A stretch of DNA of 64,000 nucleotides from Oscillospiraceae bacterium (lineage in GTDB: Bacteria > Bacillota > Clostridia > Oscillospirales > Acutalibacteraceae), in assembly GCA_015066635.1 (NCBI GenBank), contig SVOA01000005.1, forward strand, positions 2,057 to 66,056, read 5' to 3'. A program made the position numbers and the translations under genes. Shown here piece by piece: positions 5,494-55,772 of this stretch. Numbering within the stretch: the stretch's first letter is position 1; each line of letters starts with the position of its first letter. The notes below the pieces were generated by a model. That model was given only the letters and a program-made list of their open reading frames with translations. It searched no databases and was not told where the DNA came from.

Positions 5494-6687
5494 ATGGCAA
5501 AGGCAAAATTTGAAAGAACAAAACCCCATGTTAATATTGGTACTATCGGTCACGTTGACCACGGTAAGACAACATTAACAGCTGCTATCACAAAGACACT
5601 CGCTTCAAAGGGTCAGGCTGACTTCGTTGACTATGCAAACATCGATAAGGCTCCCGAAGAGAGAGAGCGCGGTATTACTATCAACACAGCTCACGTTGAG
5701 TATGAGACCGACAAGCGTCACTATGCTCACGTTGACTGCCCCGGCCACGCTGACTATATCAAGAACATGATTACAGGTGCTGCACAGATGGATGGTGCTA
5801 TCCTTGTTATCGCTGCTACAGACGGCCCGATGGCTCAGACAAAAGAGCATCTTCTTCTTGCCCGTCAGGTTGGCGTTCCGGCAATCATCGTATTCCTTAA
5901 CAAGTGCGACCAGGTTGACGATCCCGAGCTCCTTGAACTCGTTGAGATGGAAGTTCGTGAGACTCTTGCTGAGTACGAATTCGATGAGAACTGCCCGATC
6001 ATTAAGGGCTCAGCTCTTAAGGCTCTTGAAGCTTCAGATCCTAACTCTGATGACGTTAAGTGCATTTGGGAACTCATGGACGCAGTTGACAATTACATTC
6101 CTACTCCCGACCGTAAGGCAGACCAGCCGTTCCTTATGCCTGTTGAGGACGTTATGACCATCACAGGCCGTGGTACAGTTGCTACCGGCAGAGTTGAGCG
6201 CGGACAGCTCAGACTCGGCGAGGAAGTTGAAATCGTTGGTCTTACAGAAGAGAAGTCAAAGACAGTCGTTACAGGTATCGAGATGTTCAGAAAGACTCTT
6301 GATTACGCTGAGGCAGGCGACAACATCGGTGCACTTCTTCGTGGTGTTGACAGAAAAGGTATTGAGCGCGGACAGGTTCTTTCAAAGCCCGGTTCAATCC
6401 ATCCCCACACTAAGTTCAGAGGCCAGGTTTACGTTCTTACCAAGGACGAAGGCGGCCGTCATACTCCGTTCTTCAACAACTACCGTCCTCAGTTCTATTT
6501 CAGAACAACAGATGTAACAGGTATCATCACTCTTCCCGCAGGCACAGAGATGTGCATGCCCGGTGATAACGTTGAAATGGACGTTGAACTTATCACTCCC
6601 ATCGCTATTGAAGAAGGTCTCCGTTTCGCTATCCGTGAAGGCGGCAGAACAGTTGGTTCAGGCGTTGTTATCGCTATCAACGAATAA
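5494..6687 (+). CDS. tuf: Elongation factor Tu
   Basis: [33 protein letters not shown]... is full-length canonical EF-Tu. RBS AAAGGAGGA lies upstream. Confidence 0.98.
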
Positions 6688-6720
6688 TTCTTTTACGGCG
6701 TAAGAATTTAATTAAAATCA

Positions 6721-6757
6721 AACTCCTCTGTCTGAAAGGACAGAGGAGTTTTTTTGT
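6721..6757. terminator. Bidirectional rho-independent terminator (tuf / YolD-like gene)
   Basis: aactcctctgtc-tgaaag-gacagaggagtt forms a 12-bp perfect stem followed by TTTTTT. It sits between convergent genes. Confidence 0.8.
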
Positions 6758-6951
6758 TATTTGTTTTTCCCGTTTGTATGCTCGGAGGTTTTCCGAATAG
6801 ACTCGTCATAACCGCTTAGCGCCGCAAACGGAGCGAATTGCGCCGCCCTGTCATGCATTGACATATGCTTACGCCTTGAGGACTGATAGTGAGGCAGGTC
6901 AATTATGTGCGCGTATTTCTCAGCGCCGTTTTCTTTTTTTTGACTGTTCAT
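6757..6951 (-). CDS. YolD-like protein (small accessory protein of Gram-positive Y-family polymerase operons)
   Basis: 64 aa with the RAAQFAPFAALSGY core typical of YolD-like proteins. ATGA start/stop overlap with the upstream polymerase gene. Confidence 0.7.
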   Translation of the reverse strand: MNSQKKENGAEKYAHIIDLPHYQSSRRKHMSMHDRAAQFAPFAALSGYDESIRKTSEHTNGKNK

Positions 6952-8429
6952 GCCTTATGCCCTCCTATCTGCTTATTGCGGTCTATTGCCGTTGCGCCCT
7001 CCTCAAGATTTATGCCTTTGAGTACGGCGTTCTTACCGTAACGCTTTTGCAGGGAAAGTACGGCCAACTGAAGATTTTTTTCCTTTTCAAGCCGTTCTTT
7101 TTCTTTGTTAAGCTCCTTTTCGCGCTGAGAATAGTCCACAAAAAGACTCAACTGTTCGGGTTCCGGCTTGGAAATATTACCCTCAACGGCAATATGATTT
7201 GCAACTATATACATTCTGCGCACGAGCAAATCTTTATCGACAATTCGGTCAAAGAGATGCAGAACGGTTTTATATATCTTTGAAATAGATGAGGTAAATT
7301 CGCCTATGTTTTCACTCCCGTGAGCCTGCTTAGGAACCTTGCGTCCGTATCTGTCAAGGGTAAACTCGCCCTTATAGTCATTATTCTGTATATCATAGCC
7401 GACTGTCAGCACCATCTGGTCTGTGGTAAGCCGTTTATCGACAAGTTCGAGTACAAGTGATTGCGTCATCTCTTTTATTATAAGTCTCGCTTTTTCAAAA
7501 TTGTACGGCTCGGCCAGAACCTGCCCGAGACTTAACGACCTATCCTGTGGTTTGTAAGACTTTATGTCGGATATTCTGCACGGCTCCCAGCCCCACGCGT
7601 GGTCAATAAGAAGCTCGGCGTATATACCGAATTCTTCATAGAGAATGTCCTCGTTTTTAAGTGAGAATTCGGCTATATCCCCCATTGTGTGAAGTCCGTA
7701 TTTGTTAAGCCGCCTGACATATCCCGCGCCTATGCGCCAGAAGTCGGTTAAGGGCTGATGATTCCACAGAAGCTCACGGTAACTGCGCTCGTCAAGCTCG
7801 GCTATGCGCACGCCGTCCCGGTCTGAGGGAATATGCTTTGCAACAATATCCATCGCAATTTTGCAAAGATAGAGATTTGTTCCTATGCCTGCGGTGGCGG
7901 TAATTCCCGTCTGCTTAAGCACATCCTTTATCATGGTCCTTGTCAGCTCGTATGCGCTCATTTTATAAGTTTCAAGATAATCGGTAACATCTATAAAGAC
8001 CTCGTCCACCGAGTAAACGTGTATATCCTCCGAGGAAACGTACTTCAGATAAATCTGATAGATTTTTGTACTCAGCTCCATATAGTAAGCCATCCTCGGG
8101 GGAGCAACGATAAAATCAAGTTTAAGAGATGAATTCTGTTTCAGTTCAGAGTCAAAATATGACAAACCCGAAAAAACGCCGTCGGGAGCATTCTTTTGCC
8201 GCTCGGCGTTTACTTCGCGTACTTTCTGAATTACCTCAAAAAGTCTTGCCCTGCCGGGAATTCCGTAGCTTTTGAGCGAAGGCGTTACGGCAAGGCATAT
8301 TGTTTTTTCGGTACGGCTGAGGTCGGCAACAACAAGATTTGTATTCAGGGGGTTAAGCCCTCTCTGAATACACTCTGCCGAAGCGTAAAACGACTTCAGG
8401 TCTATTGCCGCATAATATCTCTGTTTCAA
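6948..8429 (-). CDS. Y-family (UmuC/PolY2-UvrX-like) translesion DNA polymerase
   Basis: The N-terminus YYAAIDLKSFYASAEC (UmuC/ImpB-type catalytic motif), SVDEVFIDVT and later palm/little-finger regions. 493 aa. Confidence 0.9.
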   Translation of the reverse strand: MKQRYYAAIDLKSFYASAECIQRGLNPLNTNLVVADLSRTEKTICLAVTPSLKSYGIPGRARLFEVIQKVREVNAERQKNAPDGVFSGLSYFDSELKQNSSLKLDFIVAPPRMAYYMELSTKIYQIYLKYVSSEDIHVYSVDEVFIDVTDYLETYKMSAYELTRTMIKDVLKQTGITATAGIGTNLYLCKIAMDIVAKHIPSDRDGVRIAELDERSYRELLWNHQPLTDFWRIGAGYVRRLNKYGLHTMGDIAEFSLKNEDILYEEFGIYAELLIDHAWGWEPCRISDIKSYKPQDRSLSLGQVLAEPYNFEKARLIIKEMTQSLVLELVDKRLTTDQMVLTVGYDIQNNDYKGEFTLDRYGRKVPKQAHGSENIGEFTSSISKIYKTVLHLFDRIVDKDLLVRRMYIVANHIAVEGNISKPEPEQLSLFVDYSQREKELNKEKERLEKEKNLQLAVLSLQKRYGKNAVLKGINLEEGATAIDRNKQIGGHKA

Positions 8430-8695
8430 TCAGCGTGTCTCCTTTTCTTTGCTTTTGGCTCTACAAACCATTTGCTTTCGTATAAATCTTCAAACAGATA
8501 AGTCTGTTTTCCCCCGATAACAACGGGATACCTCAGACCGCAGCCGCCTGATGGCGAGACGGTCTGTTTGACATCTCCTACCGCGTCAATGTTATACATA
8601 CTGCCGTCGGTCCATTTTACCGTAATCGGTCTTTTGTTGCCGTCAGCGCTGTGACAAAGCACAACGTCAACATATATTCTTCCCAAAGCCTTCAT
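8426..8695 (-). CDS. Hypothetical 89-aa protein, first gene of the SOS/TLS operon
   Basis: The ORF has a 4-nt overlap with the polymerase start. It is preceded by GAGAGGA and by a promoter plus LexA box. I recognise no family. Confidence 0.6.
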   Translation of the reverse strand: MKALGRIYVDVVLCHSADGNKRPITVKWTDGSMYNIDAVGDVKQTVSPSGGCGLRYPVVIGGKQTYLFEDLYESKWFVEPKAKKRRHAD

Positions 8696-8722
8696 TATAT
8701 AACAATCCTCTCAAAACAAAAC

Positions 8723-8736
8723 CGAACAAATGTTCT
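8723..8736 (-). promoter_or_regulatory. LexA (Cheo/SOS) box, GAAC-N4-GTTC type
   Basis: The plus strand reads CGAACAAATGTTCT; the coding strand reads AGAACATTTGTTCG. It lies immediately downstream of the -10 of the operon promoter and about 30 nt upstream of the first start codon. Confidence 0.65.
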
Positions 8737-8742
8737 GATATA

Positions 8743-8770
8743 AATATATCACAAAATACGCATTTGTCAA
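8743..8770 (-). promoter_or_regulatory. Sigma-A-type promoter of the TLS operon (TTGACA, 16-nt spacer, TATATT on the minus strand)
   Basis: tgtcaa at 8765-8770 and aatata at 8743-8748 on the plus strand. Confidence 0.5.
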
Positions 8771-8898
8771 CCGGAAAATAAAGGATAAAACGGGAAACTA
8801 AGGAATTTGAGTACCTTTGTCGGGACTTTATTATAAAATAAGAATATGTAAATGAATATTCCGTATATATCCTCATATATTTTTTATGGGGTGATATT

Positions 8899-9375
8899 AT
8901 GAAAAACAAACCGTGGAAAAATTATGCTTTCTGGATAGCGGTTACGGAAATTGTCGGGCTGATTGCAGGTTTAATCAGCCGTAAAGGCACAGAGCTTTAC
9001 AGTGAAACAATTATTAAGCCGCCGCTTTCTCCGCCCGCTTTGCTTTTCCCGATAGTGTGGGTTCTGCTTTACGCTGTTATGGGTATCGGAGCCGCAAAAA
9101 TAAGTCTGTCAAGACCGTCGGAAACGCGCAGAAAGGCGCTCTATATCTATATCGCACAGCTTGCGGTAAACTTTTTCTGGAGCATAATTTTCTTTAACTT
9201 TCAGGCGTTTGCTTTCGCTTATGTGTGGCTGCTCGCCTTATGGGGGCTCATAGTTCTGATGATTCTGTCCTTCAGAAAGCTCGACAAAACTGCAGCGTAT
9301 CTGCAGATACCGTATCTTGTCTGGGTGTCGTTTGCGGGGTATCTCAATCTCGGAGTATGGCTTCTCAACAGATAA
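8899..9375 (+). CDS. tspO: TspO/MBR family tryptophan-rich sensory protein
   Basis: Five predicted TM helices. KPPLSPPALLFPIVWVLLYAVMG and the W-rich C-terminal helices are typical of TspO. Confidence 0.85.
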   Translation: MKNKPWKNYAFWIAVTEIVGLIAGLISRKGTELYSETIIKPPLSPPALLFPIVWVLLYAVMGIGAAKISLSRPSETRRKALYIYIAQLAVNFFWSIIFFNFQAFAFAYVWLLALWGLIVLMILSFRKLDKTAAYLQIPYLVWVSFAGYLNLGVWLLNR

Positions 9376-9378
9376 AAA

Positions 9379-9416
9379 ATCTCTCTTGCCGACACCGTTC
9401 CGACAAGAGAGTTTTT
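9379..9416. terminator. Bidirectional terminator (tspO / LRR-SLH gene)
   Basis: ctctcttgccg...cgacaagagag stem (one mismatch) followed by TTTTT, between convergent genes. Confidence 0.6.
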
Positions 9417-9417
9417 A

Positions 9418-10905
9418 TTATTTTTCAAAGTACCCGAGTCTGTCCATATTTGTTATTATCTGAGCAATCTCGCATCTCAGAGCATTGTCCTTGGGAGCGA
9501 GAGTGAATTTGTTTTTGCCGGCAATAATTTTATTCTGAACGCACCATGCGACGCTGACCTCGGCAAAATTGCTGACATTACCGCGGTCGTCAAACTTGCG
9601 CAGTACAAAATTGGGTGTGCCGTGCAGAGCAGTTTCCTTATCAATATAGGTCAGATAACGGTAAAGAATAGCGCAGACCTGCTCTCTCGTTATCGGGTCG
9701 CCTACTCCGAAGCGCCCGTCCTCATAACCGTTTATAATGCCTTCCTGCAAAGCCCATGCAACCGCACGGCCGTAGTAGGAGTTTATATCGACGTCGGGAA
9801 AACGGCAGTTTGTATATGAAGCTGAATTTACGCCGTCAATATTTGCGAGTATCAGAATAAAGTCCTGCCGCTGAAGTTTATTTGCAGGTCCAAACCGTCC
9901 GTTTCCGTAACCGTTCATAAAGCCGTGCCTTACACAGTAACCGACCGCATCACGGTACCAGACATTATCGGGAACGTCGGGAAGCGGGGCATAGGCAACG
10001 CCTATCGGGATAAATTCATAGCCGTGGTTTTCGGCAAAAATTTCTGCATAAGACCCCGTGAAGCCGTATATCGTATGCAGGTTATCACAGCCGTCAAAGC
10101 TGTCCTCGGGTATTATTTCAACATCTTTGCCTATTGTTATTTCTGTAATCTTAACACAGCTTTTGAGCGTACCTTCGTTTATCTTTACGACACCGTCGGG
10201 AATTATTATCTCGGTGGCTATACTGCCGATACCCGTATAGGTGCAGTAAGGATTATAGAAAACGGTTACATCTTTAAGCGAGGTACAGCCCATAACCAAA
10301 TCGGCATTTACATCATAAACGCCGGCGGGGAAGACAAGGCTCTGAAGCGAGGTACAGTTATAGAAGGCAAGCGAGCCCAGAATACGCAGACTGTCGGGTA
10401 AAACTATCCCGTCGAGTGAGGAGCAGCCGTCAAACGCCGTTTCCCCTATCTCATCAAGCCCGTCGGGGAGTTTTATGAAATCAAGCTTGGCACAATTGTA
10501 AAATGCGTTATCGCCGATTTTACTGAGCGAATCGGGCAGTACGATTTTTTCGAGCGCAGAGCAGTTATAGAAAGCACCGATTTCAAGGATGCTTATACCT
10601 TCGGGGACAGTAATTTGCGTAATATCCGAACGGTTGTAAAAGGTAAACGGTCCCACGGTGCTGACGGGTATTCCGTCAATCTCGGCGGGAACTGTCAGTT
10701 CGGTTTCATTACCCAAATAGGAGCTGGTTTTCCAGTTTCCTCCGGTAAGCGCGGCAGTGCCGTCGGAAAGCACAGTATATTTCCACAGTCCGTCATTGCT
10801 GATAACCGCATCGCTCTCATCGAGTGCGTGCGCAGGTAATGCCGCAATCATAATAAACATAAAAGCCGCTGTCAGTACGGCAGCAGTAAACCGTTTTTTA
10901 AACAT
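9418..10905 (-). CDS. Secreted BspA-type leucine-rich-repeat protein with three C-terminal SLH domains
   Basis: N-terminal signal peptide (AAFMFIMIAALPAHA). Repeated IxxxAFxxCxxLxxIxLPDxL units (LRR_5 type). Three SLH-like modules (WYRDAVGYCVRHGFMNGYGNGRFGP; YYGRAVAWALQEGIINGYEDGRFG; FAEVSVAWCVQNKIIAG). Confidence 0.85.
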   Translation of the reverse strand: MFKKRFTAAVLTAAFMFIMIAALPAHALDESDAVISNDGLWKYTVLSDGTAALTGGNWKTSSYLGNETELTVPAEIDGIPVSTVGPFTFYNRSDITQITVPEGISILEIGAFYNCSALEKIVLPDSLSKIGDNAFYNCAKLDFIKLPDGLDEIGETAFDGCSSLDGIVLPDSLRILGSLAFYNCTSLQSLVFPAGVYDVNADLVMGCTSLKDVTVFYNPYCTYTGIGSIATEIIIPDGVVKINEGTLKSCVKITEITIGKDVEIIPEDSFDGCDNLHTIYGFTGSYAEIFAENHGYEFIPIGVAYAPLPDVPDNVWYRDAVGYCVRHGFMNGYGNGRFGPANKLQRQDFILILANIDGVNSASYTNCRFPDVDINSYYGRAVAWALQEGIINGYEDGRFGVGDPITREQVCAILYRYLTYIDKETALHGTPNFVLRKFDDRGNVSNFAEVSVAWCVQNKIIAGKNKFTLAPKDNALRCEIAQIITNMDRLGYFEK

Positions 10906-46349: not shown

Positions 46350-48800
46350 ATGCCTTTTGAAAAGAAAGTCAGCGTTTGTATAAACGCATACAACTGTCAG
46401 GATTATATAGCAGAAACACTCCAGTCTGTTATTGACCAGACCTATGACAATCTTGAAATAATATTGGTCGATGACTGCTCAACCGATAATACCGTTAGCG
46501 TTGTTGAGGGCTTTACCGACAGCAGAATAAAACTTATCAGGCTGCCTGAGAACGTAAACATTTCTGCGGCAAATAACGAAGCGCTCAGAAATGCAACGGG
46601 CGACTATATTGCGCATCTGGACTCCGACGATGTCTGGGAGCCTGCAAAGCTTGAGAAACAGATTAAGTTTATTGAGGAGCACCCCGAGTATCAGGCGTGT
46701 TTTTCACACGTTAAGGTTATAAATGAAAAGTCGGAGCCCGTTGAAAAGGGCAGTTACTTTGAAAAGGTCTTTAATATTGACACAGTTTCTCAGGTCGATT
46801 TCATAAGGCTTTTTAACGACACGGCAAACCACCTCTGCCACTCCACAATGCTTATAACCCGTAAGGCGTTTGAGAAGCTCGGCTACCACGACCTGAGCCT
46901 TCTTTATCTGCACGACTATGACTGCTGGACAAGACTTATATTTATCACGCCTATTTTCATATATCCCGAGCCGCTGACAAGGTACAGAGTCAGAAGCGGC
47001 AGCAACTCGTCGCAAACGGACGAGAAGGATATTGCTCATAACGAGGAATATGCCAGAGTAACATACAACCTTATCAATAATTGTCCCGACGATATGTTCC
47101 TCAGGGCTTTCAGCGACAGACTGAAGCTGGAGGGGGAGCACACGCACGAGGAAACAGAGGTTGAGAAGGCCTTTGTGCTTCTGAATTCCTTTATCGTACT
47201 TCAGGGAAACACATATCTCGGCATAAAGAAATTTGACGAACTTTTCAAAGACGGGAAATATATAAAACTCTGCAAGGAAAAATTCAACTTCTCCTTAAAG
47301 GATTTCTACGCTCTGCATACTAAGGAAATATTCTATAACGGGCCCAAAACCGAGCAGATGAAAAATGAAATCATCGGTCTTAACGGCAGAGTTGACGAAT
47401 TAAGCGGCGAGAACGCAAGACTCGGTACGGAGCTGTCCGAGACGCAGAACGAATTGCTCGGCACACAGGCTTCGCTTGCTCAGACAAGGTCCGAGCTTGA
47501 AAGCACCGTACAGGATAAGGATAACCTTGAGCGGCAGTACAGAGCGCTTGACAGCGGATACAGACATCTTGAGGATATGTATAATCTGGCTCTTAATTCC
47601 CGTTCAATGCGTTATACCCAACCTATACGTGTGCTCAGAAAGCTGAAAAATCTGTTTGTAAAGACGACCAATGACGGCAGGAAGGCAAAGGCAAAGCTTG
47701 TGCTTTACGGCTTTTACGGGCATAACCTCGGAGACGACATATTCTTTGATATGCTTTTCAAAAGGTATCCGGATATACTTTTCTATGTGCTGTGTACGCC
47801 TGACTACGCTCCCGTTTTCGGTAAATATGCAAACGTCAGATTTTACGATTGCACACGTCCCGCAGTACAGAAGATTAACGCTCTGGGCAAAAAACTCGGC
47901 ATCAGAGATTTGTTTGAGTGGCTGCTGCTCGATGCAACCGACGGTGCGGTTCATATAGGCGGCTCGGTCTATCAGCAGATAGCCGACTGGGAGCTTGACC
48001 TTAAAATCAGAAAGGACAGACACCATCTCGGCAAAAAGTTCTTTGCAATTTCAAATAATTTCGGACCTTATTCCACCGAAGATTACTATAAATTCTGGTA
48101 CCGTCAGTTTAAGAAGTGGGACGATATATGCTTCCGGGATTACTATTCCTATAATCTGTTTAACGGCATACCTCATGTCAGGGTTGCGCCCGATTTGCTT
48201 TTCTCATATCCTCATGCGCCCTGCGAGAGCAAAAAGAAGGTTGCCGTTTCGGTAATAAACCCGCGCTTCAGAGTCAGAAGCTTTACCGAGGAACAGTCGG
48301 CGGCTTACGAGAAAAAAATAGCGGAGCTTATTGAATTCTATGCCGGACGCGGTTATGAGATTTCGCTTCTCGGTTTCTGCACTCTTGAGGAAGACCAGAC
48401 CGAAATTGAAATAATAAAGCAGATGCTTTCGGATGAAACCTCAGAGAAGGTTGTCAGCACGGTGTTTGCAGACAGTATTGATGCCGTTATAAATGAAATC
48501 AGAGAGAGCGAAATAGTTATCGCAACCCGTTTCCACGCCATGATTTTAGGATATATTTTCGGCAAGGATGTTCTTCCAATTTGTTACGGCGACAAGATGA
48601 GCAACGTTGTACGCGACTTTGTACTGAGCGCCGAAACGATAAAGATGACCGAACTCGGCAGGTATTCCGTGCAGGAGCTTGACATCCTCAGGAACAGCCT
48701 CGGCGCCGAGCAGATAGCTCATCTTTCGGCACGCGCCTCGGAGCAGTTTGCAGGACTTGACAGATATGCAGAAAAAAAGCACTGCGAAATCATCAGATAA
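46350..48800 (+). CDS. Fusion protein: GT2 glycosyltransferase, coiled coil, polysaccharide pyruvyl transferase (CsaB/WcaK-like)
   Basis: N-terminal VSVCINAYNCQDYIAETLQSVIDQTY...LVDDCSTDNT...HLDSDDVW (GT2). A coiled coil of about 90 aa. C-terminal LVLYGFYGHNLGDDIF ... IATRFHAMILG is typical of pyruvyl transferases. Confidence 0.8.
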   Translation: MPFEKKVSVCINAYNCQDYIAETLQSVIDQTYDNLEIILVDDCSTDNTVSVVEGFTDSRIKLIRLPENVNISAANNEALRNATGDYIAHLDSDDVWEPAKLEKQIKFIEEHPEYQACFSHVKVINEKSEPVEKGSYFEKVFNIDTVSQVDFIRLFNDTANHLCHSTMLITRKAFEKLGYHDLSLLYLHDYDCWTRLIFITPIFIYPEPLTRYRVRSGSNSSQTDEKDIAHNEEYARVTYNLINNCPDDMFLRAFSDRLKLEGEHTHEETEVEKAFVLLNSFIVLQGNTYLGIKKFDELFKDGKYIKLCKEKFNFSLKDFYALHTKEIFYNGPKTEQMKNEIIGLNGRVDELSGENARLGTELSETQNELLGTQASLAQTRSELESTVQDKDNLERQYRALDSGYRHLEDMYNLALNSRSMRYTQPIRVLRKLKNLFVKTTNDGRKAKAKLVLYGFYGHNLGDDIFFDMLFKRYPDILFYVLCTPDYAPVFGKYANVRFYDCTRPAVQKINALGKKLGIRDLFEWLLLDATDGAVHIGGSVYQQIADWELDLKIRKDRHHLGKKFFAISNNFGPYSTEDYYKFWYRQFKKWDDICFRDYYSYNLFNGIPHVRVAPDLLFSYPHAPCESKKKVAVSVINPRFRVRSFTEEQSAAYEKKIAELIEFYAGRGYEISLLGFCTLEEDQTEIEIIKQMLSDETSEKVVSTVFADSIDAVINEIRESEIVIATRFHAMILGYIFGKDVLPICYGDKMSNVVRDFVLSAETIKMTELGRYSVQELDILRNSLGAEQIAHLSARASEQFAGLDRYAEKKHCEIIR

Positions 48801-48802
48801 TA

Positions 48803-48844
48803 AAAAGCCTGACAGTTTTATAACTGTCAGGCCCTTTTGTTTTT
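48803..48844. terminator. Bidirectional terminator (GT2-pyruvyl transferase / histidine kinase)
   Basis: gcctgacagtt-ttat-aactgtcaggc is an 11-bp perfect stem with A- and T-runs on either side. Confidence 0.8.
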
Positions 48845-50080
48845 TTATTTTAAATAAGCGGTAAAAACAATTCTGTGCCCGTCGGGACTTTCGGCTTTTA
48901 TTTCGCCCTTGTGCGCTTCGGCTATGCTTCTCGCCATTGATAGCCCTATTCCGAAGCCTTGATTTTCCGAGTTCCTTGATTTATCCGCACGGTAAAATCT
49001 GTCAAACAGCTTGTCAAGTTCCGATGTGTCAAGGCTGTCGCATTCGTTTGTCGATTTGATTACAATACCGCTTTTTGCCTTTTCAAGAGAGAATTCAATT
49101 TCCGAGTCTTTGACCGAATATTTGATGGCGTTGTCAATAAGAATCGAACACAGGCGTCTGACCATATATTCGTCTCCGTTGTAACTCAGACCGTCCGGAA
49201 TACTCAAAGCAAGTCTGCGTCCCTGACTTTCGGTATATTCCCTGAAAGATTCTGCGGTTTCCTTAACCGCGGCGCTTATGTCAAAGCTGTGAATTTTTAC
49301 GGGCGTTTCCTCCTCGTCCATACGGGAAAGAGAAACAAGAGAGTTTACAAGCTCTCCGAGTTTTTCTGTCTGTGCCTTTGCCTTGTCTATCCATTTTTGT
49401 CTGCCGACCTCCATTTCGAGTACGGTAAGACTTGTGGCAATAACAGTAATCGGTGTTTTCAGCTCGTGTCCCGCGTCGGTAATAAACTGCTTCTGCTGAG
49501 CGTCCGCCTTTATGACGGGGTCAACGGCCTTGCGGGAAAACAGTATGATAAGCACGGTTATCAGGGCAATGCAGACCGCAGTTGCACCGACTGACAGCAT
49601 AAGCGTTGTGAGCATTGAGCTTATTTCCTTGTCGGCATTGAGAAATACAGCCGAATAGTTACCGTCAGACTGCTTTGTTACGGAATATCTGTATCCGTCG
49701 GCATAACCTTTGCCCTCGCCGTTTTTTTGCGCAATTCCGAGATAGAACGAAATGTCATTTTCCGTAACGGCGGCAATACTTTCAAGATTTGCAGCTGTTA
49801 CGGTTCCGTCCTCAGTATAGTTTATGACAAAATACCGTGTCAGAAACGGTGTTTCCCTGCCGAAATCTCTGTCGGGTTTGCCGTCGGGCTTAAACTCTCC
49901 GCCCTCGCGGAAGGAGGGCATATTACCCATATTCCCGTTAATCATATTGAGGGTATTATCGAGCTTTGAGGTTGTCGAAATAAGGTTTGCGGTGTTCAGA
50001 ATAACGCACAGCAGCAGCATTACGCCGGCAACGGTAAAGCTTGCGATTTTTATAAATTTTTTCTGTAAGCGTTTAATCAT
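48845..50080 (-). CDS. Sensor histidine kinase (two TM segments flanking an extracytoplasmic domain of about 140 aa)
   Basis: H-box FITDAGHELKTPITVI, N-box IDNAIKYS and G-boxes GFGIGLSMA. Confidence 0.9.
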   Translation of the reverse strand: MIKRLQKKFIKIASFTVAGVMLLLCVILNTANLISTTSKLDNTLNMINGNMGNMPSFREGGEFKPDGKPDRDFGRETPFLTRYFVINYTEDGTVTAANLESIAAVTENDISFYLGIAQKNGEGKGYADGYRYSVTKQSDGNYSAVFLNADKEISSMLTTLMLSVGATAVCIALITVLIILFSRKAVDPVIKADAQQKQFITDAGHELKTPITVIATSLTVLEMEVGRQKWIDKAKAQTEKLGELVNSLVSLSRMDEEETPVKIHSFDISAAVKETAESFREYTESQGRRLALSIPDGLSYNGDEYMVRRLCSILIDNAIKYSVKDSEIEFSLEKAKSGIVIKSTNECDSLDTSELDKLFDRFYRADKSRNSENQGFGIGLSMARSIAEAHKGEIKAESPDGHRIVFTAYLK

Positions 50081-50753
50081 TTTCGGCCTCCAGAATATAT
50101 CCTAATCCGCGGTTGGCGTGAACAGTAACCTTTGAACCAATACCGTACAGTTTTTTGCGAAGGTTTGAAATATGCACCCATACTACATTGATTTCGGCAT
50201 CGGAATCCCAGCCCCATACTCTTTCCATAATTTTGTCGGCAGACAGGACGGTTTTGGGATTGCGCATAAATAACTCCATAACCTGAAATTCTCTGCCGCT
50301 GAGTCTTACGGATTTGCCCGAAGTACATTCAAGCAAGTCGCTTGACGGGTTAAGCGAAATGTCTCCGAATGACAGCACGGAGGGCTTGTATTCCTCACGG
50401 CGCCGAAGTATTGCCCGAACACGGCTCAGCAGTTCGTCTGCTTCAAAGGGCTTGGGAAGATAATCGTCTGCACCCGAGTCGAAACCTTCGATTCTGTCAT
50501 CCTTCTGAGCCTTTGCGGTAAGCATCATAATAGGCGTGCGGTTCCCGTCGCTGCGGAGCCGCTTTAAAACCTCGATGCCGTTGAGTCCCGGCATCATAAC
50601 ATCAAGAATTATAGCGTCATATTCGTCTGCACAGGCATATTCGTAGGCAGATGTTCCGTCATTTACGGTGTCAACCGTGAACTGATTTTTTTCAAAAAAT
50701 ACCGTCAGAGCTTCAGCTAAATCAAGCTCGTCCTCGGCAATAAGTAAACGCAT
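50073..50753 (-). CDS. OmpR/PhoB-family response regulator
   Basis: MRLLIAEDE...ILDVMMPG (phospho-Asp)...LTAK. The C-terminal winged helix is LSGREFQVMELF...GLGY. 8-nt overlap with the kinase gene. ATG 50753 follows GGGTGG. Confidence 0.92.
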   Translation of the reverse strand: MRLLIAEDELDLAEALTVFFEKNQFTVDTVNDGTSAYEYACADEYDAIILDVMMPGLNGIEVLKRLRSDGNRTPIMMLTAKAQKDDRIEGFDSGADDYLPKPFEADELLSRVRAILRRREEYKPSVLSFGDISLNPSSDLLECTSGKSVRLSGREFQVMELFMRNPKTVLSADKIMERVWGWDSDAEINVVWVHISNLRKKLYGIGSKVTVHANRGLGYILEAEND

Positions 50754-50809
50754 ATAAACCACCCGAAATAATTATATTATAAATTGGTAATAAAAGCAAT
50801 AATCGTGTT

Positions 50810-51472
50810 TTACAGCGCTTCCTTGCTGTCAACCTTGCTGCAGACTATATTCAGGTTTCCGTTACGGCACCTTATTTCGTCAATAAGCGCTTTTGGTATC
50901 TGCGGCTGTTTTAGTATAATTTCGTACTGTAATTCAAACATGGTTCCCATATTTGTCGTCTTGACCTTTTCGAGCGAAGCGTGCTTTGTGTACTGCTCAA
51001 ACAGGTCGTCAAACAGTCCGTCGTAATCGAGATTTTCGGGAATTGTGATTTTGAGAGTTCTTGCAGAACTGTTCCCTGAGCCGAAATCGGTTACGGTTAA
51101 AACTATTATGAATACGGACAGTATTGCAAAGAATATTCCTGCCAGTGCAACATAACCCATACCTGTTGCAAGTCCGATAGCCATCGCCATAAAAATTGCG
51201 CCGATTTCCTTTGCCGTACCGGGTGCGGAGCGGAATCTTACCAGCGAGAAAGCTCCCGCCACCGCAACGCCTGCGCCTATATTTCCGTTTACAAGCATAA
51301 TTACTATCTGAACTATTGCAGGCAGCATTGCAAGCGTTACCGCAAAGCTTTGTGTGCAACGGTTTTTAAATGAGTAAACGAGCGCCGTACCGATACCGAG
51401 TACGAGAGATATTCCCGTACAGATTAAGAATACGGATATTGTTATTTCTGTTGATATAATTGAACTAAGCAC
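50810..51472 (-). CDS. DUF4956-type polytopic membrane protein
   Basis: Four to five TM helices with GAGVAVAGAFSLVRFRSAPGTAKEIGAIFMAMAIGLATGMG, then a soluble C-terminal domain. 8-nt overlap with the upstream VTC-domain gene. Confidence 0.75.
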   Translation of the reverse strand: MLSSIISTEITISVFLICTGISLVLGIGTALVYSFKNRCTQSFAVTLAMLPAIVQIVIMLVNGNIGAGVAVAGAFSLVRFRSAPGTAKEIGAIFMAMAIGLATGMGYVALAGIFFAILSVFIIVLTVTDFGSGNSSARTLKITIPENLDYDGLFDDLFEQYTKHASLEKVKTTNMGTMFELQYEIILKQPQIPKALIDEIRCRNGNLNIVCSKVDSKEAL

Positions 51473-52202
51473 TTAAACGCGCCTCCTTTTTGATTGCTTT
51501 GATACTGCTGTCGAGAATATGCTCCCGATAACAGGTACCGTATTTTGAAAATGAAGTCGGATAGATACCGAGCTGTGTGAGAATGTGTGAAAGGAACAGA
51601 GGACATACGCCAGGAATTTTGATTTCCATAAGTATTCTGCCGTCATTTACGAGAGCCTCTCCGTAATCTCCCTTTCTCAGGTCAAGCTCTGTGAGTCTGA
51701 ATCTTATATTCCTGTCAAAGGTTATTCTTAATTCACTGTCGTCCCTGCCCGCATAAGCCTCACGGTCATAGGCGATAAACGCTTTCGGAGATGAACGGTA
51801 TAAACTCTGGAAATATGAGATTTCCTTTGAAATCTGCGTCTGACGGTCGCTCGGATAGATTCCCCTTAACATAGGTTCGCAGAGATATGCGTCTGCCGTC
51901 ATCCTTCTTTTATAGACAACCCCGTCATATTTTTTCTTTAATTCTATAAAAACCTGCGAGCCGTTTTCGGGGACACCGTAGCTTCTTACTCTCAGCTTTT
52001 CCTTATAAACCGGTTTGTCGAGCGAAGCGCGTATAAGCGCATAGTCATCTGTGTCATAATAGATATTACATATAGTGTATTGTCCATATTCATCGGGCTT
52101 TACAAAGGGAGCGATTTCCTCTTTGAAGCTCCTGTACTGTTCCTCTGTCAGAAAGTACTTTTTTTCATATCTTTTAAAGCAGGTCTGAATACTGTTTGTC
52201 AT
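51465..52202 (-). CDS. VTC-domain (triphosphate tunnel metalloenzyme, Vtc4-like polyphosphate polymerase domain) protein
   Basis: FKRYEKKYFL, KLRVRSY, FIELKKKY, LRITFDRNIRF and LMEIKIPG are the alternating basic/acidic beta-strand motifs of the TTM/VTC tunnel. ATG 52202 lies 7 nt after AAAGGAGGT. Confidence 0.8.
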   Translation of the reverse strand: MTNSIQTCFKRYEKKYFLTEEQYRSFKEEIAPFVKPDEYGQYTICNIYYDTDDYALIRASLDKPVYKEKLRVRSYGVPENGSQVFIELKKKYDGVVYKRRMTADAYLCEPMLRGIYPSDRQTQISKEISYFQSLYRSSPKAFIAYDREAYAGRDDSELRITFDRNIRFRLTELDLRKGDYGEALVNDGRILMEIKIPGVCPLFLSHILTQLGIYPTSFSKYGTCYREHILDSSIKAIKKEARLSA

Positions 52203-52240
52203 AGGCGTTACCTCCTTTGCCGACCTCATTATAGGAGGAT

Positions 52241-52296
52241 AACCTAAAGAGAACCTAAAGGAAAAATTAAAGAATTCTTTAGGTTCACTTTAAGTG
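52241..52296. promoter_or_regulatory. Repeat-type operator candidate in the divergent promoter region: two direct AACCTAAAG repeats at 11-bp spacing, one inverted copy, and an adjacent palindrome
   Basis: AACCTAAAG at 52241-52249 and 52252-52260. CTTTAGGTT (inverted copy) at 52277-52285. CACTTtAAGTG palindrome at 52286-52296. Confidence 0.45.
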
Positions 52297-52339
52297 AGTG
52301 CTTTATGATAAAGCCGAAATCTCAAAGGAGGAGATTATT

Positions 52340-53869
52340 ATGAAAAACTCAAAACTCAAAAAATTAACGGCACTTACCGTAACCCTTTTAATAATAGTAT
52401 CGGTTTTCTGCTCCTGCTCGCTGAAAAAAACAGATTTATCGGCTGCAGAGTCGGACAGCACGGGGACGGGTAACGAGGCAGTCGTCAGTCTTTTGAACGA
52501 TTCGCAGGTTACTCCCGATACGCAGAGCGGAAATACTATTATACTTGAAGGCGAAACGGCAACCGTAAACGGAAACGGAGCAGAGGTCAAAGACGGAACA
52601 GTAACAATTACCGCAGGCGGAACCTATACCGTTTCGGGAACTCTTAAAGACGGAAGGATAATTGTTGACGCAGACGGCGAAGAGGTTATTATAGTTTTCT
52701 CGAATGCAAGCATCAGCTGTTCGTATTCAAGTCCGCTGTATATTTACAAGGCGTCAAAGGCAACAGTTTATCTTGCGGAGGGGACAAAGAACACCCTTAC
52801 CGATTCGGCGTCTTACAGCTACGGCGATTCTTTTTCCTCGCAGACGGATGAGGAACCGAACTCGGCTCTTTACTCAAAAACCGACCTTGTAATTGCGGGC
52901 AGCGGAGAACTTACCGTAAATGCGAATTTCAACAATGGCATTACAAGCAAGGACACTCTCAGAATTGAGAATGCAACGCTTACCGTAAACGCAAAGAATC
53001 ACGGTATCAACGGCAAGGATAATCTTGAGGTCAGAAATGCAAACATAACGGTTACCTGCTCGGGAGATGCGCTTCGCTCGACTAACGATACGGATTCCTC
53101 TCTGGGATATATCATTATTGCAAATTCCGATTTGACGCTGAATTCGGGCGAGGACGGAATTCAAGCTCAGACTTATCTCACTATAAGCAATTCCGATGTT
53201 ACGGTTACCTCGGGCGGAGGAAGTGGAACTTCTCTGAATTCCGAAGTCAGCGCAAAAGGACTTAAAGCCGAAACTGACATCACGCTTGAGGGAGGCAGCT
53301 TTAAACTTGACTGCTGCGACGACGCGGTTCACGCGGGACAGAATATAACAATTCAGTCAGGCGAGTTTACGGTCAGCACGGGAGACGATGCAATTCATGC
53401 AGACAACACCGTAACGATTAACGGCGGCGATATGACTCTTGAGTGCCATGAAGGAATTGAGGCAACGGTAATAGTAATAAACGGCGGTAAAACGGTTATC
53501 AATGCAAGTGATGACGGCATCAATGCCGCACAGAAGGTTTCGGGAATTACTCCGAGGGTTGAAATCAATTCGGGCGAAATCACGATTACAATGGGACAGG
53601 GAGATACCGACGGAATTGACTCTAACGGGGATATAATTATAAACGGCGGTACGCTCAGCGTAACGGGACAGTTCCCGTTTGACTATGACGGCACGGCATC
53701 GGTAAACGGCGGAACGGTTTATGCCAACGGCGAAAAGGTTACCGAGCTTCAGAATCAGTTTGCCGGCGGAATGTCCGGCGGAGGACAGATGCAGGGTGAA
53801 CCTCCCGCAGGCAGAGGACAGATGCCCGACGGTCAGAAGGGCGCTGTGCCTCCCGGAGGAAAAAGATAA
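52340..53869 (+). CDS. Secreted or lipid-anchored Cthe_2159-type carbohydrate-binding beta-helix protein
   Basis: Signal peptide with Cys (LLIIVSVFCSCS). NTIILEGETATVNGNGAEVKDGTVTITAGGTYTVSGTLKDGRIIVDA is followed by many DGI/DDAIHA-type helix turns. Gly/Pro/Gln-rich tail. ATG 52340 follows AAAGGAGGAG. Confidence 0.75.
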   Translation: MKNSKLKKLTALTVTLLIIVSVFCSCSLKKTDLSAAESDSTGTGNEAVVSLLNDSQVTPDTQSGNTIILEGETATVNGNGAEVKDGTVTITAGGTYTVSGTLKDGRIIVDADGEEVIIVFSNASISCSYSSPLYIYKASKATVYLAEGTKNTLTDSASYSYGDSFSSQTDEEPNSALYSKTDLVIAGSGELTVNANFNNGITSKDTLRIENATLTVNAKNHGINGKDNLEVRNANITVTCSGDALRSTNDTDSSLGYIIIANSDLTLNSGEDGIQAQTYLTISNSDVTVTSGGGSGTSLNSEVSAKGLKAETDITLEGGSFKLDCCDDAVHAGQNITIQSGEFTVSTGDDAIHADNTVTINGGDMTLECHEGIEATVIVINGGKTVINASDDGINAAQKVSGITPRVEINSGEITITMGQGDTDGIDSNGDIIINGGTLSVTGQFPFDYDGTASVNGGTVYANGEKVTELQNQFAGGMSGGGQMQGEPPAGRGQMPDGQKGAVPPGGKR

Positions 53870-53884
53870 TATGTAATTAAAAGA

Positions 53885-53918
53885 CGGCCTGACAGTAAAA
53901 ACTGTCGGGCTGTTTTTT
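53885..53918 (+). terminator. Terminator after the beta-helix protein gene
   Basis: cggcctgacag-taaaaa-ctgtcgggctg (imperfect stem) followed by TTTTTT. Confidence 0.6.
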
Positions 53919-53950
53919 AGTCGGGACTTGCAAATGAAAACGGAATTCGG

Positions 53951-53977: not shown

Positions 53978-54667
53978 ATGCTTATAAATTTACTGTCCTT
54001 TATTTTTGCAAATATGTTTTACCTTATGCTTCATCTGGAGAATTCGGGGTCTTTCCCGAAGCCTCTGAGCGCAAAGGAGGAGGCGGAGGCTCTGGCAAAA
54101 ATGCAGCAGGGGGACGCGGCGGCGAGAGATTTGCTTATTGAGCACAATCTGCGGCTTGTGGTACATATAATTAAAAAATATTACTCGAATTATTCCGACC
54201 AGGACGATTTGATTTCAATAGGCACAATAGGACTTATAAAGGCGGTCAACAGCTTTGACAATTCCAAGGGCACACGGCTCGCCACCTATGCGGCGAGGTG
54301 CGTGGAAAATGAAATACTAATGTACTTCCGCAATCAAAAAAAGAGCGCACAGGATATTTCAATGAACGACCCCATTGACTTTGACGCGCAGGGCAACCCT
54401 CTGACGCTTGCCGATATTCTCTACACAGACGACACCGTTTTTGACGATATAGACAAGAGGATGAAGGTAGAAAAGCTTAGACAGTATATTTCGGAAATGA
54501 AGGATGAGAGAGAAAAACAGATTATAATAAGAAGATACGGACTTGACGGCAGGTGTCCGCTTACACAGAGGGAAATAGCAAAGCAGATGAATATTTCCCG
54601 TTCCTATGTTTCCAGACTCGAGAAAAAAGCCATAGAAGATTTGCGCAAAAGCTTTGACGGGGAATAA
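53978..54667 (+). CDS. sigK: Sporulation sigma factor K (pro-sigma-K, uninterrupted)
   Basis: Hydrophobic pro-sequence, then SFPKPLSAKEE...LIEHNLRLVVHIIKKY...DLISIGTIGLIKAV...LATYAARCVENEILM. This is closest to the SigK pattern (NAFPQPLS / LIEHNLRLVAH). Confidence 0.85.
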   Translation: MLINLLSFIFANMFYLMLHLENSGSFPKPLSAKEEAEALAKMQQGDAAARDLLIEHNLRLVVHIIKKYYSNYSDQDDLISIGTIGLIKAVNSFDNSKGTRLATYAARCVENEILMYFRNQKKSAQDISMNDPIDFDAQGNPLTLADILYTDDTVFDDIDKRMKVEKLRQYISEMKDEREKQIIIRRYGLDGRCPLTQREIAKQMNISRSYVSRLEKKAIEDLRKSFDGE

Positions 54668-54710: not shown

Positions 54711-55772
54711 ATGATAAGCGAAATACTCAAAAAAACTTCATCGTGGGAAATGCTTAAAAGCACGGAACTGCCTGTAATTCTGTACGGCACGGGTAACGGC
54801 GCCGACAGGGTTATAGATGAATTCCTGCGCCTCGGCATTACTCTGTCGGGTATTACCGCAAGCGACGGCTTTGTGCGCAAACGTCAGTTCCGCGGATTTG
54901 AGGTTAAGGAAATTTCATATTTTGAGGAGCTTTACGGCGATTTTGCCGTTGCCGTTGCCTTCGGCTCAAATCTCGACAGCGTTATTAAAACGATTCTCGG
55001 CGTTGCCGAAAAGCACAGAACGGTTGTGCCCTGCGTTCCCGTTTACGGAGATACGGTTTTTAACCGTGAGTTTATTGAGAAAAATAAAATCAAACTGGAG
55101 CAGGTTTATGGTTTGCTTGCGGACGATATTTCAAAAGAGGTCTTTTCGGATGTCGTTAAATTTGAACTTACGGGCGAGCTGAAATATCTTCTTCGCAGCG
55201 AAACCTCAAAGGACGAGGCCTTCGGTAGCATACTCAAACTCGGCGCAGACGAGCACTGTCTCGACATCGGCGCATACCGAGGCGACACGGTTGACGAGTT
55301 TCTGAAATATACGGGCGGATTGTACGGGAGTATTACCGCACTTGAGCCCGATGCCAAGAGTTTTGAGAAGCTGCGCGCTCATACCTCAAATCTCAAAAAC
55401 TGTCGTCTTGTAAACAAAGGAATATGGAGCGAGTGTACCGAGATATTGTTTTCCGACGGTAAAAAGGGCAGGGGAAACAGCGCTTCTCAAAAGGGAAAAC
55501 CCGTTAAAACCGTTACGGTTGACTTGCTTGACGGTGCAGATAAATTCACATACATAAAAGCGGACGCCGAAGGGTGTGAAGGGGAAATGCTTTACGGAGC
55601 ATACAACACCCTCAAAAAGAAAAAGCCGAAGCTCAATATTGCTTGCTACCACAGAAGCGAGGACATATTTGAACTTCCGCTTAAAATCAGGGAAATAAAC
55701 CCCGATTACAGAATTTATTTAAGACATCATCATTACATACCCTGCTGGGATATGAATCTTTATTGCGTATGA
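54711..55772 (+). CDS. FkbM-family methyltransferase
   Basis: CLDIGAYRGDTVDEF...ALEPD...IKADAEGCE are FkbM motifs. The N-terminal LPVILYGTGNGA Rossmann-like extension is also present. Confidence 0.8.
   Translation: MISEILKKTSSWEMLKSTELPVILYGTGNGADRVIDEFLRLGITLSGITASDGFVRKRQFRGFEVKEISYFEELYGDFAVAVAFGSNLDSVIKTILGVAEKHRTVVPCVPVYGDTVFNREFIEKNKIKLEQVYGLLADDISKEVFSDVVKFELTGELKYLLRSETSKDEAFGSILKLGADEHCLDIGAYRGDTVDEFLKYTGGLYGSITALEPDAKSFEKLRAHTSNLKNCRLVNKGIWSECTEILFSDGKKGRGNSASQKGKPVKTVTVDLLDGADKFTYIKADAEGCEGEMLYGAYNTLKKKKPKLNIACYHRSEDIFELPLKIREINPDYRIYLRHHHYIPCWDMNLYCV

Follow-up and report, generated by a model that had tools for sequence, protein, structure and literature searches.

The stretch of DNA considered here (below, the window) comprises 64,000 nucleotides (nt) of contig SVOA01000005.1 (positions 2,057-66,056) from an Oscillospiraceae bacterium (GCA_015066635.1), and our subject is a module of five genes at 48845-53869 within it, which probably makes polyphosphate (polyP) at the cell membrane by means of an enzyme of the yeast type and not the usual bacterial one. 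Four of the genes lie on the minus strand and encode, in this order, a soluble protein with the VTC/TTM domain, a membrane protein of the DUF4956 family, a response regulator (RR) and a sensor histidine kinase (HK), the last two forming a two-component system (TCS); divergent from them stands a gene for a beta-helix protein of the Cthe_2159 family (Table 1). An earlier note on this DNA, made from the sequence alone, had described these genes as a synthase/export module under dedicated two-component control. All five open reading frames (ORFs) were found again at the same coordinates, and the strands, the two 8-nt overlaps, the 56-nt gap and the bidirectional terminator that it reported were reproduced as well.

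Table 1. Genes and regulatory features of the module, in positions of the window (aa, amino acids)
Feature	Position	Strand	Evidence or remark
Bidirectional intrinsic terminator of the HK gene (-) and the convergent GT2/pyruvyl-transferase gene (+)	48807..48832	both	11-bp stem, T-tracts on each side
Sensor histidine kinase (HK), 411 aa	48845..50080	-	Pfam HisKA 2e-11, HATPase_c 1.2e-17
OmpR/PhoB-family response regulator (RR), 226 aa	50073..50753	-	Response_reg 1.8e-31, Trans_reg_C 2.6e-21
Possible internal sigma-70-type promoter for the TCS genes, TTGCTT-17 nt-TATAAT	50771..50799	-	read in the 56-nt DUF4956-RR gap; tentative
DUF4956 membrane protein, 220 aa	50810..51472	-	Pfam DUF4956 3.5e-16
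VTC/TTM-domain protein, 245 aa, soluble; predicted polyP polymerase catalytic subunit	51465..52202	-	Pfam VTC 133.3 bits, 1.4e-38
-10 hexamer TATAAT of the VTC-DUF4956-RR-HK operon promoter	52228..52233	-	7 nt downstream of box A
Box A, TTTAGGTT-CTC-TTTAGGTT, tandem direct repeat with 11-bp period at the -35 position of the VTC operon promoter	52241..52259	-	perfect match; predicted RR site
Box B, TTTAGGTT-CAC-TTTAAGTG, same tandem repeat, directed towards the Cthe_2159 gene	52278..52296	+	differs from the consensus at two positions
-10 hexamer TATGAT of the Cthe_2159 promoter	52304..52309	+	7 nt downstream of box B
Cthe_2159-family beta-helix protein, 509 aa	52340..53869	+	Pfam Cthe_2159 320.5 bits, 9.6e-96
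Intrinsic terminator closing the monocistronic Cthe_2159 transcript	53876..53921	+	-29.3 kcal/mol, z -8.6, U-tract

The junctions between the genes can be read directly from the sequence. Specifically, the VTC and DUF4956 genes overlap by 8 nt (GTGCTTAG), the GTG start of the second lying within the stop of the first and being preceded by a Shine-Dalgarno sequence (AAAGGAGG) inside the 3′ end of the VTC gene, and the RR and HK genes overlap by 8 nt as well (ATGATTAA). The 56 nt that separate the DUF4956 and RR genes, also read from the sequence, were searched for a terminator on the minus strand and contain none, and the TTGCTT-17-TATAAT pair found there is a candidate promoter, possibly constitutive, that may provide basal expression of the TCS. 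Downstream of the HK gene the terminator hairpin is strong in both directions (-23.2 kcal/mol with z -8.2 when folded as minus-strand RNA, -21.1 kcal/mol with z -7.7 for the plus strand), with a U-tract in each case. A stem core, GCCTGACAG...CTGTC(A/G)GGC, is common to the two terminators that flank the module (48807-48832 and 53886-53911), whether by coincidence or as a small repeated terminator element. The longest ORFs begin further upstream for the VTC gene (52229, giving 254 aa) and for the Cthe_2159 gene (52298), and because the conserved -10 hexamers of Table 1 lie at or inside these extensions the shorter starts at 52202 and 52340 are taken to be correct; the start codons chosen in the earlier note are thus upheld by the positions of the promoter boxes and hexamers. 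The window holds no second copy of any of the module genes, and a tblastn search with three CotH proteins located no CotH gene in it either. The DUF4956 protein has an identical counterpart in a Ruminococcaceae metagenome-assembled genome, and a syntenic contig of 93% identity exists.

The catalytic assignment rests on the VTC protein. Its match to the Pfam VTC family (PF09359) scores 133.3 bits against a cutoff of 23, with residues 19-234 of the 254-aa ORF covering profile positions 1-231 of 235. At an E-value of 0.01 or better VTC is the sole Pfam domain of the protein, which has 245 aa and neither a transmembrane (TM) region nor an SPX domain. Profiles built from the family recover the yeast Vtc4 structure (PDB 3g3q) in hmmsearch with E-values of 3.5e-8 and 1.9e-9, and hhalign against yeast Vtc4 189-481 gives a probability of 96.1 and an E-value of 3.3e-9 over 220 columns. 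The latter program was used to get beyond an insertion of Vtc4 at which the HMMER alignment halted, and the sequence of Vtc4 189-481 was put together from the printed alignments and a C-terminal stretch that was verified as 100% identical to 8i6v_E 384-481. A PDB search with the single VTC protein sequence returned no match, and a profile made from the C-terminal third alone missed Vtc4.

The tunnel residues can be compared one by one. According to a cryo-electron microscopy preprint, K200, R264, R266, K281, R361, K458, S457 and Y359 of Vtc4, together with the Mn-binding E426, are needed for polyP synthesis; mutation of these nine residues lowers polyP in yeast, and the position of K458 is taken by I or L in the catalytically inactive Vtc2 and Vtc3. 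All nine are retained in the window protein (K15=K200, R71=R264, R73=R266, K89=K281, Y145=Y359, R147=R361, E193=E426, S219=S457 and K220=K458), and across the alignments of the bacterial VTC family eight of the nine positions are invariant and Y145 nearly so. K220, the equivalent of K458, sits in an invariant SFSKYG that aligns with KFSKFI of Vtc4. The five motifs quoted in the earlier note (FKRYEKKY, KLRVRSY, FIELKKKY, RITFDRNIRF and LMEIKIPG) are all present in the translation, and its claim that the soluble protein belongs to the VTC/TTM family and keeps the tunnel residues when aligned to Vtc4 is borne out by Pfam, hmmsearch and hhalign alike. Judged by its sequence, the protein is a Vtc4-type TTM tunnel domain, and a polymerase activity is likely. 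No published assay of a bacterial VTC-domain member was found in the literature.

The module is not peculiar to this genome. A scan of one genome per species yielded 80 Clostridia loci, and with further contigs 81 loci were compared, 50 of which have at least 4 kb on each side of the pair and are called full-context loci below. DUF4956 directly follows VTC in 78 of the 81, and the overlap of exactly 8 nt recurs in 56/79 loci. Among the full-context loci, a Cthe_2159 gene lies within 4.5 kb in 40, in several gene orders, and a close homologue of the window TCS is adjacent in 24, in three arrangements; 22 have both, and eight carry the VTC-DUF4956 pair with neither. The orders include VTC-DUF4956-Cthe (13 loci), Cthe divergent from VTC-DUF4956-RR-HK as in the window (10), HK-RR divergent from VTC-DUF4956-Cthe (8) and RR-HK-VTC-DUF4956-Cthe (4). 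The co-occurrence of the four components proposed in the earlier note is thus supported across Clostridia, with shuffled orders and unrelated flanks. Some module operons also encode CotH-family proteins (with LTD, Fn3_assoc and CHB_HEX_C domains). Specifically, three loci have four-gene CotH-VTC-DUF4956-Cthe_2159 operons with overlapping stops and starts (L052, at 5533-10565; L053; L059), and a fourth has VTC-DUF4956-unknown-CotH (L045, 7983-12620); judging by their gene content, the CotH-linked and the Cthe_2159-linked versions are joined by these operons into one system. Database searches with VTC or DUF4956 return at least 8000 matches each, and the relatives listed come mainly from gut and rumen Clostridia. 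Two loci labelled Bacteroidaceae (L012 and L013) carry a module that is 58-60% identical to the clostridial one and has the same gene order, and they are probably mis-binned. A search of VTC, DUF4956 and Cthe_2159 against the PADLOC collection of anti-phage defence systems gave no match, and NCBIfam has no model for any of the three.

The two regulatory genes have the features of an OmpR/PhoB-type TCS, namely an RR with receiver and winged-helix domains, an HK with HisKA and HATPase_c domains, and an 8-nt overlap between them. In the HK, an extracytoplasmic domain without a family match, some 125 aa long, lies between two TM segments (approximately residues 12-28 and 153-182), and the HisKA and HATPase_c domains come after these. 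The HK falls below every NCBIfam equivalog cutoff, and the best scores of the RR are likewise below theirs (220 bits for RppA, cutoff 250; 180 bits for PhoB, cutoff 296); by these scores the TCS is not orthologous to a named system (PhoBR, RppAB and others).

What ties this TCS to the other genes is the region between the divergent VTC and Cthe_2159 genes. Each of the two tandem boxes there is followed by a -10 hexamer after exactly 7 nt, and the boxes thus occupy the -35 position. Activators of PhoB/OmpR class II promoters bind tandem direct repeats that replace the -35 element, as in the classical pho box. The window agrees with that architecture in having two direct repeats with an 11-bp period in place of the -35 and a fixed short distance to the -10, and differs from it in the half-site (TTTAGGTT), in the presence of two back-to-back boxes for divergent promoters and in an RR below the PhoB equivalog cutoff. 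Matches to the box pattern in the 64-kb window are confined to this intergenic region. Box A is conserved in L002 and L004, the paired box on the opposite strand is kept in related loci, and a -10-like hexamer stands exactly 7 nt from 34 of 37 boxes in about 20 loci, for promoters of both directions. Upstream of VTC the box is found in 19/39 TCS-bearing loci, concentrated where the RR is a close orthologue. Outside the VTC upstream regions, boxes with two mismatches or fewer occur three times in 1.06 Mb of loci; a wider regulon is not indicated, since there are no boxes elsewhere in the window and all three distant matches lack a -10-like hexamer at 7 nt.

The half-site, moreover, co-varies with the clade of the RR. 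Regulators scoring more than 320 bits to that of the window go with the layout TTTAGGTT-N3-TTTAGGTT; those at about 240 bits, with the gene order RR-HK-VTC, go with TTTAAGT-N4-TTTAAGT; and those at about 190 bits, where HK-RR is divergent from VTC, go with TTTCAG-N5-TTTCAG in an inverted pair of tandem boxes. The TTTAAGT and TTTCAG boxes are likewise at a fixed distance to a -10 hexamer. Loci with such clade-shifted boxes are L033, L040, L042, L047, L051, L074, L078 and L082 (upstream of VTC), as well as L049, L057, L065, L075 and L076. The dedicated two-component control that the earlier note put forward thus finds support in the conserved tandem boxes that take the place of the -35 element in both divergent promoters. 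It is quite likely that the RR binds the TTTAGGTT boxes, and from strong comparative evidence we infer that the TCS switches on the VTC operon as well as the lipoprotein gene.

The product of that gene matches the solved Clostridium thermocellum structure of its family (PF14262; 4peu/4phb) with an E-value of 2.6e-38. It is composed of a lipoprotein signal peptide (lipobox VFCSC, Cys26), a Ser/Thr-rich linker, an acidic beta-helix and a Gly/Pro/Gln-rich tail, and its mature isoelectric point (pI) is 4.17; a lipobox is present in 49/56 of the orthologous Cthe_2159 proteins found as neighbours. We take the protein for a beta-helix that is tethered to the surface and probably binds cations. The earlier note had seen in it an extracytoplasmic partner of a polyanion synthase, and the location is supported by the lipoprotein signal. 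Direct binding of a polyanion by the beta-helix is ruled out, the proteins being strongly acidic (pI about 4.1), and the Cthe_2159 protein could meet polyP solely via Ca2+ or Mg2+ bridges.

The DUF4956 protein matches its Pfam family (PF16316) with 59.8 bits against a cutoff of 30.6, as do 56/56 of the aligned relatives. The family comprises 5353 clusters at 50% identity, and among its 150 best-scoring representatives nearly every protein has a single domain and a length of about 220 aa. A single-sequence AlphaFold2 (AF2) prediction was unusable (pLDDT 50.7), and the model used was made from an alignment of 56 sequences (pLDDT 66.7, pTM 0.50). The model shows five TM helices, followed by a C-terminal domain of the order beta-alpha-beta-beta-alpha-beta (ACT-like), to which alone the ACT/CutA-type matches of Foldseek apply (E about 0.03). 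By the positive-inside rule the N-terminus lies outside and both the RFRS loop and the C-terminal domain are cytoplasmic; in this model the soluble VTC enzyme would dock at the loop or at the C-terminal domain, and a physical complex of the two proteins is somewhat probable. Three database proteins that combine VTC with DUF4956 or DUF4956 with HATPase_c (P0415, P0464 and P0467) were rejected as evidence of coupling, both domains being truncated in each, and are most likely chimeras across the module that arose by metagenome assembly or deletion.

The relation of DUF4956 to the MgtC/SapB/YhiD family (PF02308) deserves separate mention. The two are similar in size, the DUF4956 model, at pLDDT 66.7, suggests a like layout of five or so TM segments with a cytoplasmic ACT-like C-terminal domain, some DUF4956 members are named YhiD in the source annotations (JGI), and sub-threshold Pfam matches to MgtC occur in 32/56 members (best E 0.06). 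A link with MgtC is thereby suggested, though sequence comparison does not support membership: the Pfam threshold is never reached, hhalign against Escherichia coli YhiD, itself at 5.4e-39 for the MgtC family, gives a probability of 0.2, and DUF4956 has signature motifs of its own (NGNxGxGVAVxGAF and RFRS).

How this compares with known systems can be stated for each in turn. Bacterial polyP synthesis is attributed to PPK1 and PPK2, whose predicted counterpart here would form the same product, polyP from a nucleoside triphosphate, and whose fold and family are unrelated to VTC. With the yeast VTC complex (PDB 3G3Q, 7YTJ, 8I6V) the module shares tunnel homology over the full length, identical triphosphate- and Mn-binding residues and the pairing with a membrane protein. 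It differs in that its VTC protein lacks both the SPX and a fused TM domain, that DUF4956 is unrelated to the DUF202-type three-helix channel domains of Vtc1, that control is by a TCS and not by inositol pyrophosphates, and that the target would be the cell surface and not the vacuole. An evolutionary essay on polyP surveyed the VTC domain across eukaryotes only. The nearest precedents are bacterial. In 2019-2020, genes for CotH, a polyP polymerase (VTC) and DUF4956 (also DUF4832) were described as accessory genes beside Gram-positive pel operons (10.1101/768473), and the trio SIR_1594-1592 of Streptococcus intermedius was later described with AF2, with intact catalytic residues, a TM-plus-ACT partner that CDD places in MgtC and a CotH homologue described as secreted, the trio not being found outside pel operons (10.1101/2024.04.20.589940). 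The window agrees with these accessory genes in the VTC-DUF4956 pair, the conserved catalytic residues, the TM-plus-ACT partner and the presence of an extracytoplasmic third protein; it differs in that this third protein is a Cthe_2159 lipoprotein instead of CotH and in that a dedicated TCS and conserved promoter boxes are part of the unit. In contrast to the report on the trio, the VTC-DUF4956 pair is abundant outside pel operons in the loci compared here. No pel genes were noticed adjoining the window module, whose flanks hold GT2/pyruvyl transferase, sigma factor and FkbM methyltransferase genes, the pel genes themselves not having been searched for.

In the NELoc-2 locus of Clostridium perfringens (PMC2879425, PMC11677781), VTC-domain genes are again accompanied by a gene for a secreted CotH-family protein; that clostridial locus differs in having two VTC proteins, a sigma/anti-sigma pair, a glycosyltransferase and a deacetylase, with no TCS or Cthe_2159 link reported. 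The literature yielded no enzymology or transport data for a bacterial VTC/DUF4956 pair and no mention of a Cthe_2159 or TCS association with it. The novelty claimed in the earlier note thus holds for enzymatic and transport characterisation, none of which was found, and needs amending in that the pair as such had already been described bioinformatically with CotH near pel operons and deleted in S. intermedius; the version with Cthe_2159 and a dedicated TCS appears not to have been described before. If DUF2490 is an outer-membrane barrel, its linkage to DUF4956 would bear on export in diderms. A neighbourhood of these two genes exists in Bacteroides thetaiotaomicron, where a transcriptome table has the adjoining DUF4956 and DUF2490 genes BT3498-BT3499 co-regulated under iron limitation.

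The explanation that we favour, while holding it as tentative, draws on homology, the conservation of catalytic residues, gene linkage, promoter architecture and lipoprotein signals, and it takes the whole for a TCS-activated regulon in which polyP is synthesised by VTC on DUF4956 and delivered to the surface. Specifically, the HK would sense an extracytoplasmic signal, and the phosphorylated RR would bind the tandem boxes that replace the -35 elements of two back-to-back promoters, activating its own operon (positive autoregulation) and the lipoprotein gene as a two-promoter regulon. The VTC protein, docked on the translationally coupled and oligomeric DUF4956 protein, would polymerise the gamma-phosphate of ATP into polyP on the inner side of the membrane; the chain, probably in the form of a Ca or Mg salt, would pass through or along DUF4956 to the cell surface, and the acidic, cation-binding lipoprotein would use or retain it there, a place that a secreted CotH kinase would take in sister loci. 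Export of polyP, in the sense of vectorial delivery to the surface, is possible and still short of probable; we lean towards it because the pair is tied to two unrelated classes of extracytoplasmic protein and to exopolysaccharide operons, and because it includes coupling to a membrane protein. In its most explicit form, the enzyme would be a third, VTC-type bacterial polyP synthase that works vectorially, with VTC on a DUF4956 oligomer, the chain extruded, Ca/Mg-polyP held by the lipoprotein or serving CotH as phosphoryl donor, and a PhoB-like TCS as the switch. We regard this as rather unlikely; if true, it would be a convergent reinvention of coupled polyP synthesis and export.

A number of observations weigh against synthesis coupled to export. 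For the membrane protein, the invariant basic residues R79 and R81 (in RFRS) are predicted to lie in a loop at the cytoplasmic face and not within the TM helices, a Foldseek search of the PDB returned nothing below an E-value of 1e-3, with neither a transporter nor a VTC chain in the list of 50 matches, and hhalign against yeast Vtc1 (a query verified as 100% identical in the PDB) gave a probability of 0.1, meaning no homology. The earlier note had proposed a separate synthase and translocase on the model of eukaryotes; since DUF4956 and the yeast translocation channel are not homologous, the 'split synthase/translocase' is no more than an analogy. The model of DUF4956 is itself of moderate confidence, its layout and weak MgtC matches recall MgtC, which is considered to regulate rather than to transport, and no true VTC-DUF4956 fusion was found among the long database proteins. 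On the side of the other two proteins, the Cthe_2159 neighbours are Asp-rich, with a median pI of 4.05 and a net charge of about -43, and strand beta1 of VTC (RYEKKY) has an invariant E13 where Vtc4 has T198. We place E13 where hydrolytic CYTH/TTM enzymes have their acidic ExExK motif, and it could alter metal use or chemistry. Finally, deletion of the three S. intermedius genes, the sole genetics available for homologues, gave no aggregation or Pel phenotype, and the authors favoured, as a guess, that the polyP stays cytoplasmic (10.1101/2024.04.20.589940).

That last proposal leads to the chief alternative, which we consider somewhat unlikely and in which polyP made at a membrane tether remains in the cytoplasm for the homeostasis of ATP, phosphate or divalent cations, and DUF4956 is an MgtC-like anchor or allosteric regulator and not a channel. 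Its ACT-like domain would sense a metabolite, polyP would be an internal buffer of cations or phosphate, the lipoprotein would be co-induced as a binder of cations at the surface, and the TCS would answer ion or envelope stress. The five-TM-plus-ACT-like architecture, the weak MgtC matches, the YhiD names and the CDD placement of the S. intermedius homologue all suit it, as do the very acidic, Asp-rich lipoprotein, well fitted to cation binding, and the absence of a transporter-like fold among the Foldseek matches listed. The direct test of MgtC homology was negative, however, the persistent linkage to Cthe_2159 lipoproteins, secreted CotH kinases and exopolysaccharide operons is left unexplained, and it is not obvious why a soluble polymerase should be so strictly coupled in translation to a membrane protein. 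Several chemistries are represented within the TTM superfamily, and the VTC protein might instead be a hydrolase or transferase (a tri- or polyphosphatase, a nucleotide-using enzyme, or a donor of phosphoryl or polyphosphoryl groups to protein or glycan) that serves a surface-modification pathway with DUF4956 and the secreted partners. E13, the missing SPX and TM domains of Vtc4 and the CotH kinases of sister operons, which point to phosphotransfer chemistry, speak for such an enzyme; it is made improbable by the retention of all nine triphosphate/Mn2+ residues, including the Lys that separates the active polymerase from its inactive paralogues, and by a Pfam match to VTC far above its cutoff with no second family. 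Least weight of all falls on the idea that the five genes are neighbours by chance or shared genomic history and form no functional unit. The flanking sigma-factor and GT2/pyruvyl-transferase genes are not conserved with the module, and the pair stands apart from both Cthe_2159 and TCS in the eight loci mentioned above; yet the same families surround VTC in at least six gene orders, in many families of Clostridia and between unrelated flanks, and the VTC operon and the Cthe_2159 gene are both preceded by the same kind of regulatory box. An arrangement by chance is all but ruled out, and on this comparative evidence the module is real, conserved and well delimited.

As for the genes beyond it, an ORF at 46350-48800, convergent with the HK gene, encodes an 816-aa protein in which a coiled-coil linker connects a GT2 glycosyltransferase with a polysaccharide pyruvyl transferase; this fusion suggests an anionic (pyruvylated) glycan and is not conserved alongside the module. 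Just past the Cthe_2159 terminator lies a sigma-70-family gene (53978-54667) whose product has an N-terminal hydrophobic pro-sequence like that of the sporulation factors pro-sigma K/E, followed by an FkbM methyltransferase gene (54711-55772); neither of these two adjoins the module in L002 or L004.

The gene pair itself has been noticed before and never characterised, and what appears to be new here is its association with a Cthe_2159 lipoprotein and with a dedicated TCS that has a defined predicted operator. Nine predicted catalytic residues, a minimal unit of two genes and a predicted operator with its cognate regulator offer experimental handles, so that the question of a bacterial VTC-type polyP synthase, and of export of its polymer, becomes directly testable. 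If the VTC enzyme is active, many anaerobes would possess a separate and unrecognised route to polyP. If, in addition, the polymer is exported, this would (i) explain why CotH kinases and pel operons travel with VTC/DUF4956 genes, (ii) point to a possible source of an extracellular phosphoryl donor or of a polyanionic matrix component and (iii) mean that gut bacteria among the Clostridia could release polyP, a polymer that has been reported to act on host epithelium and coagulation.

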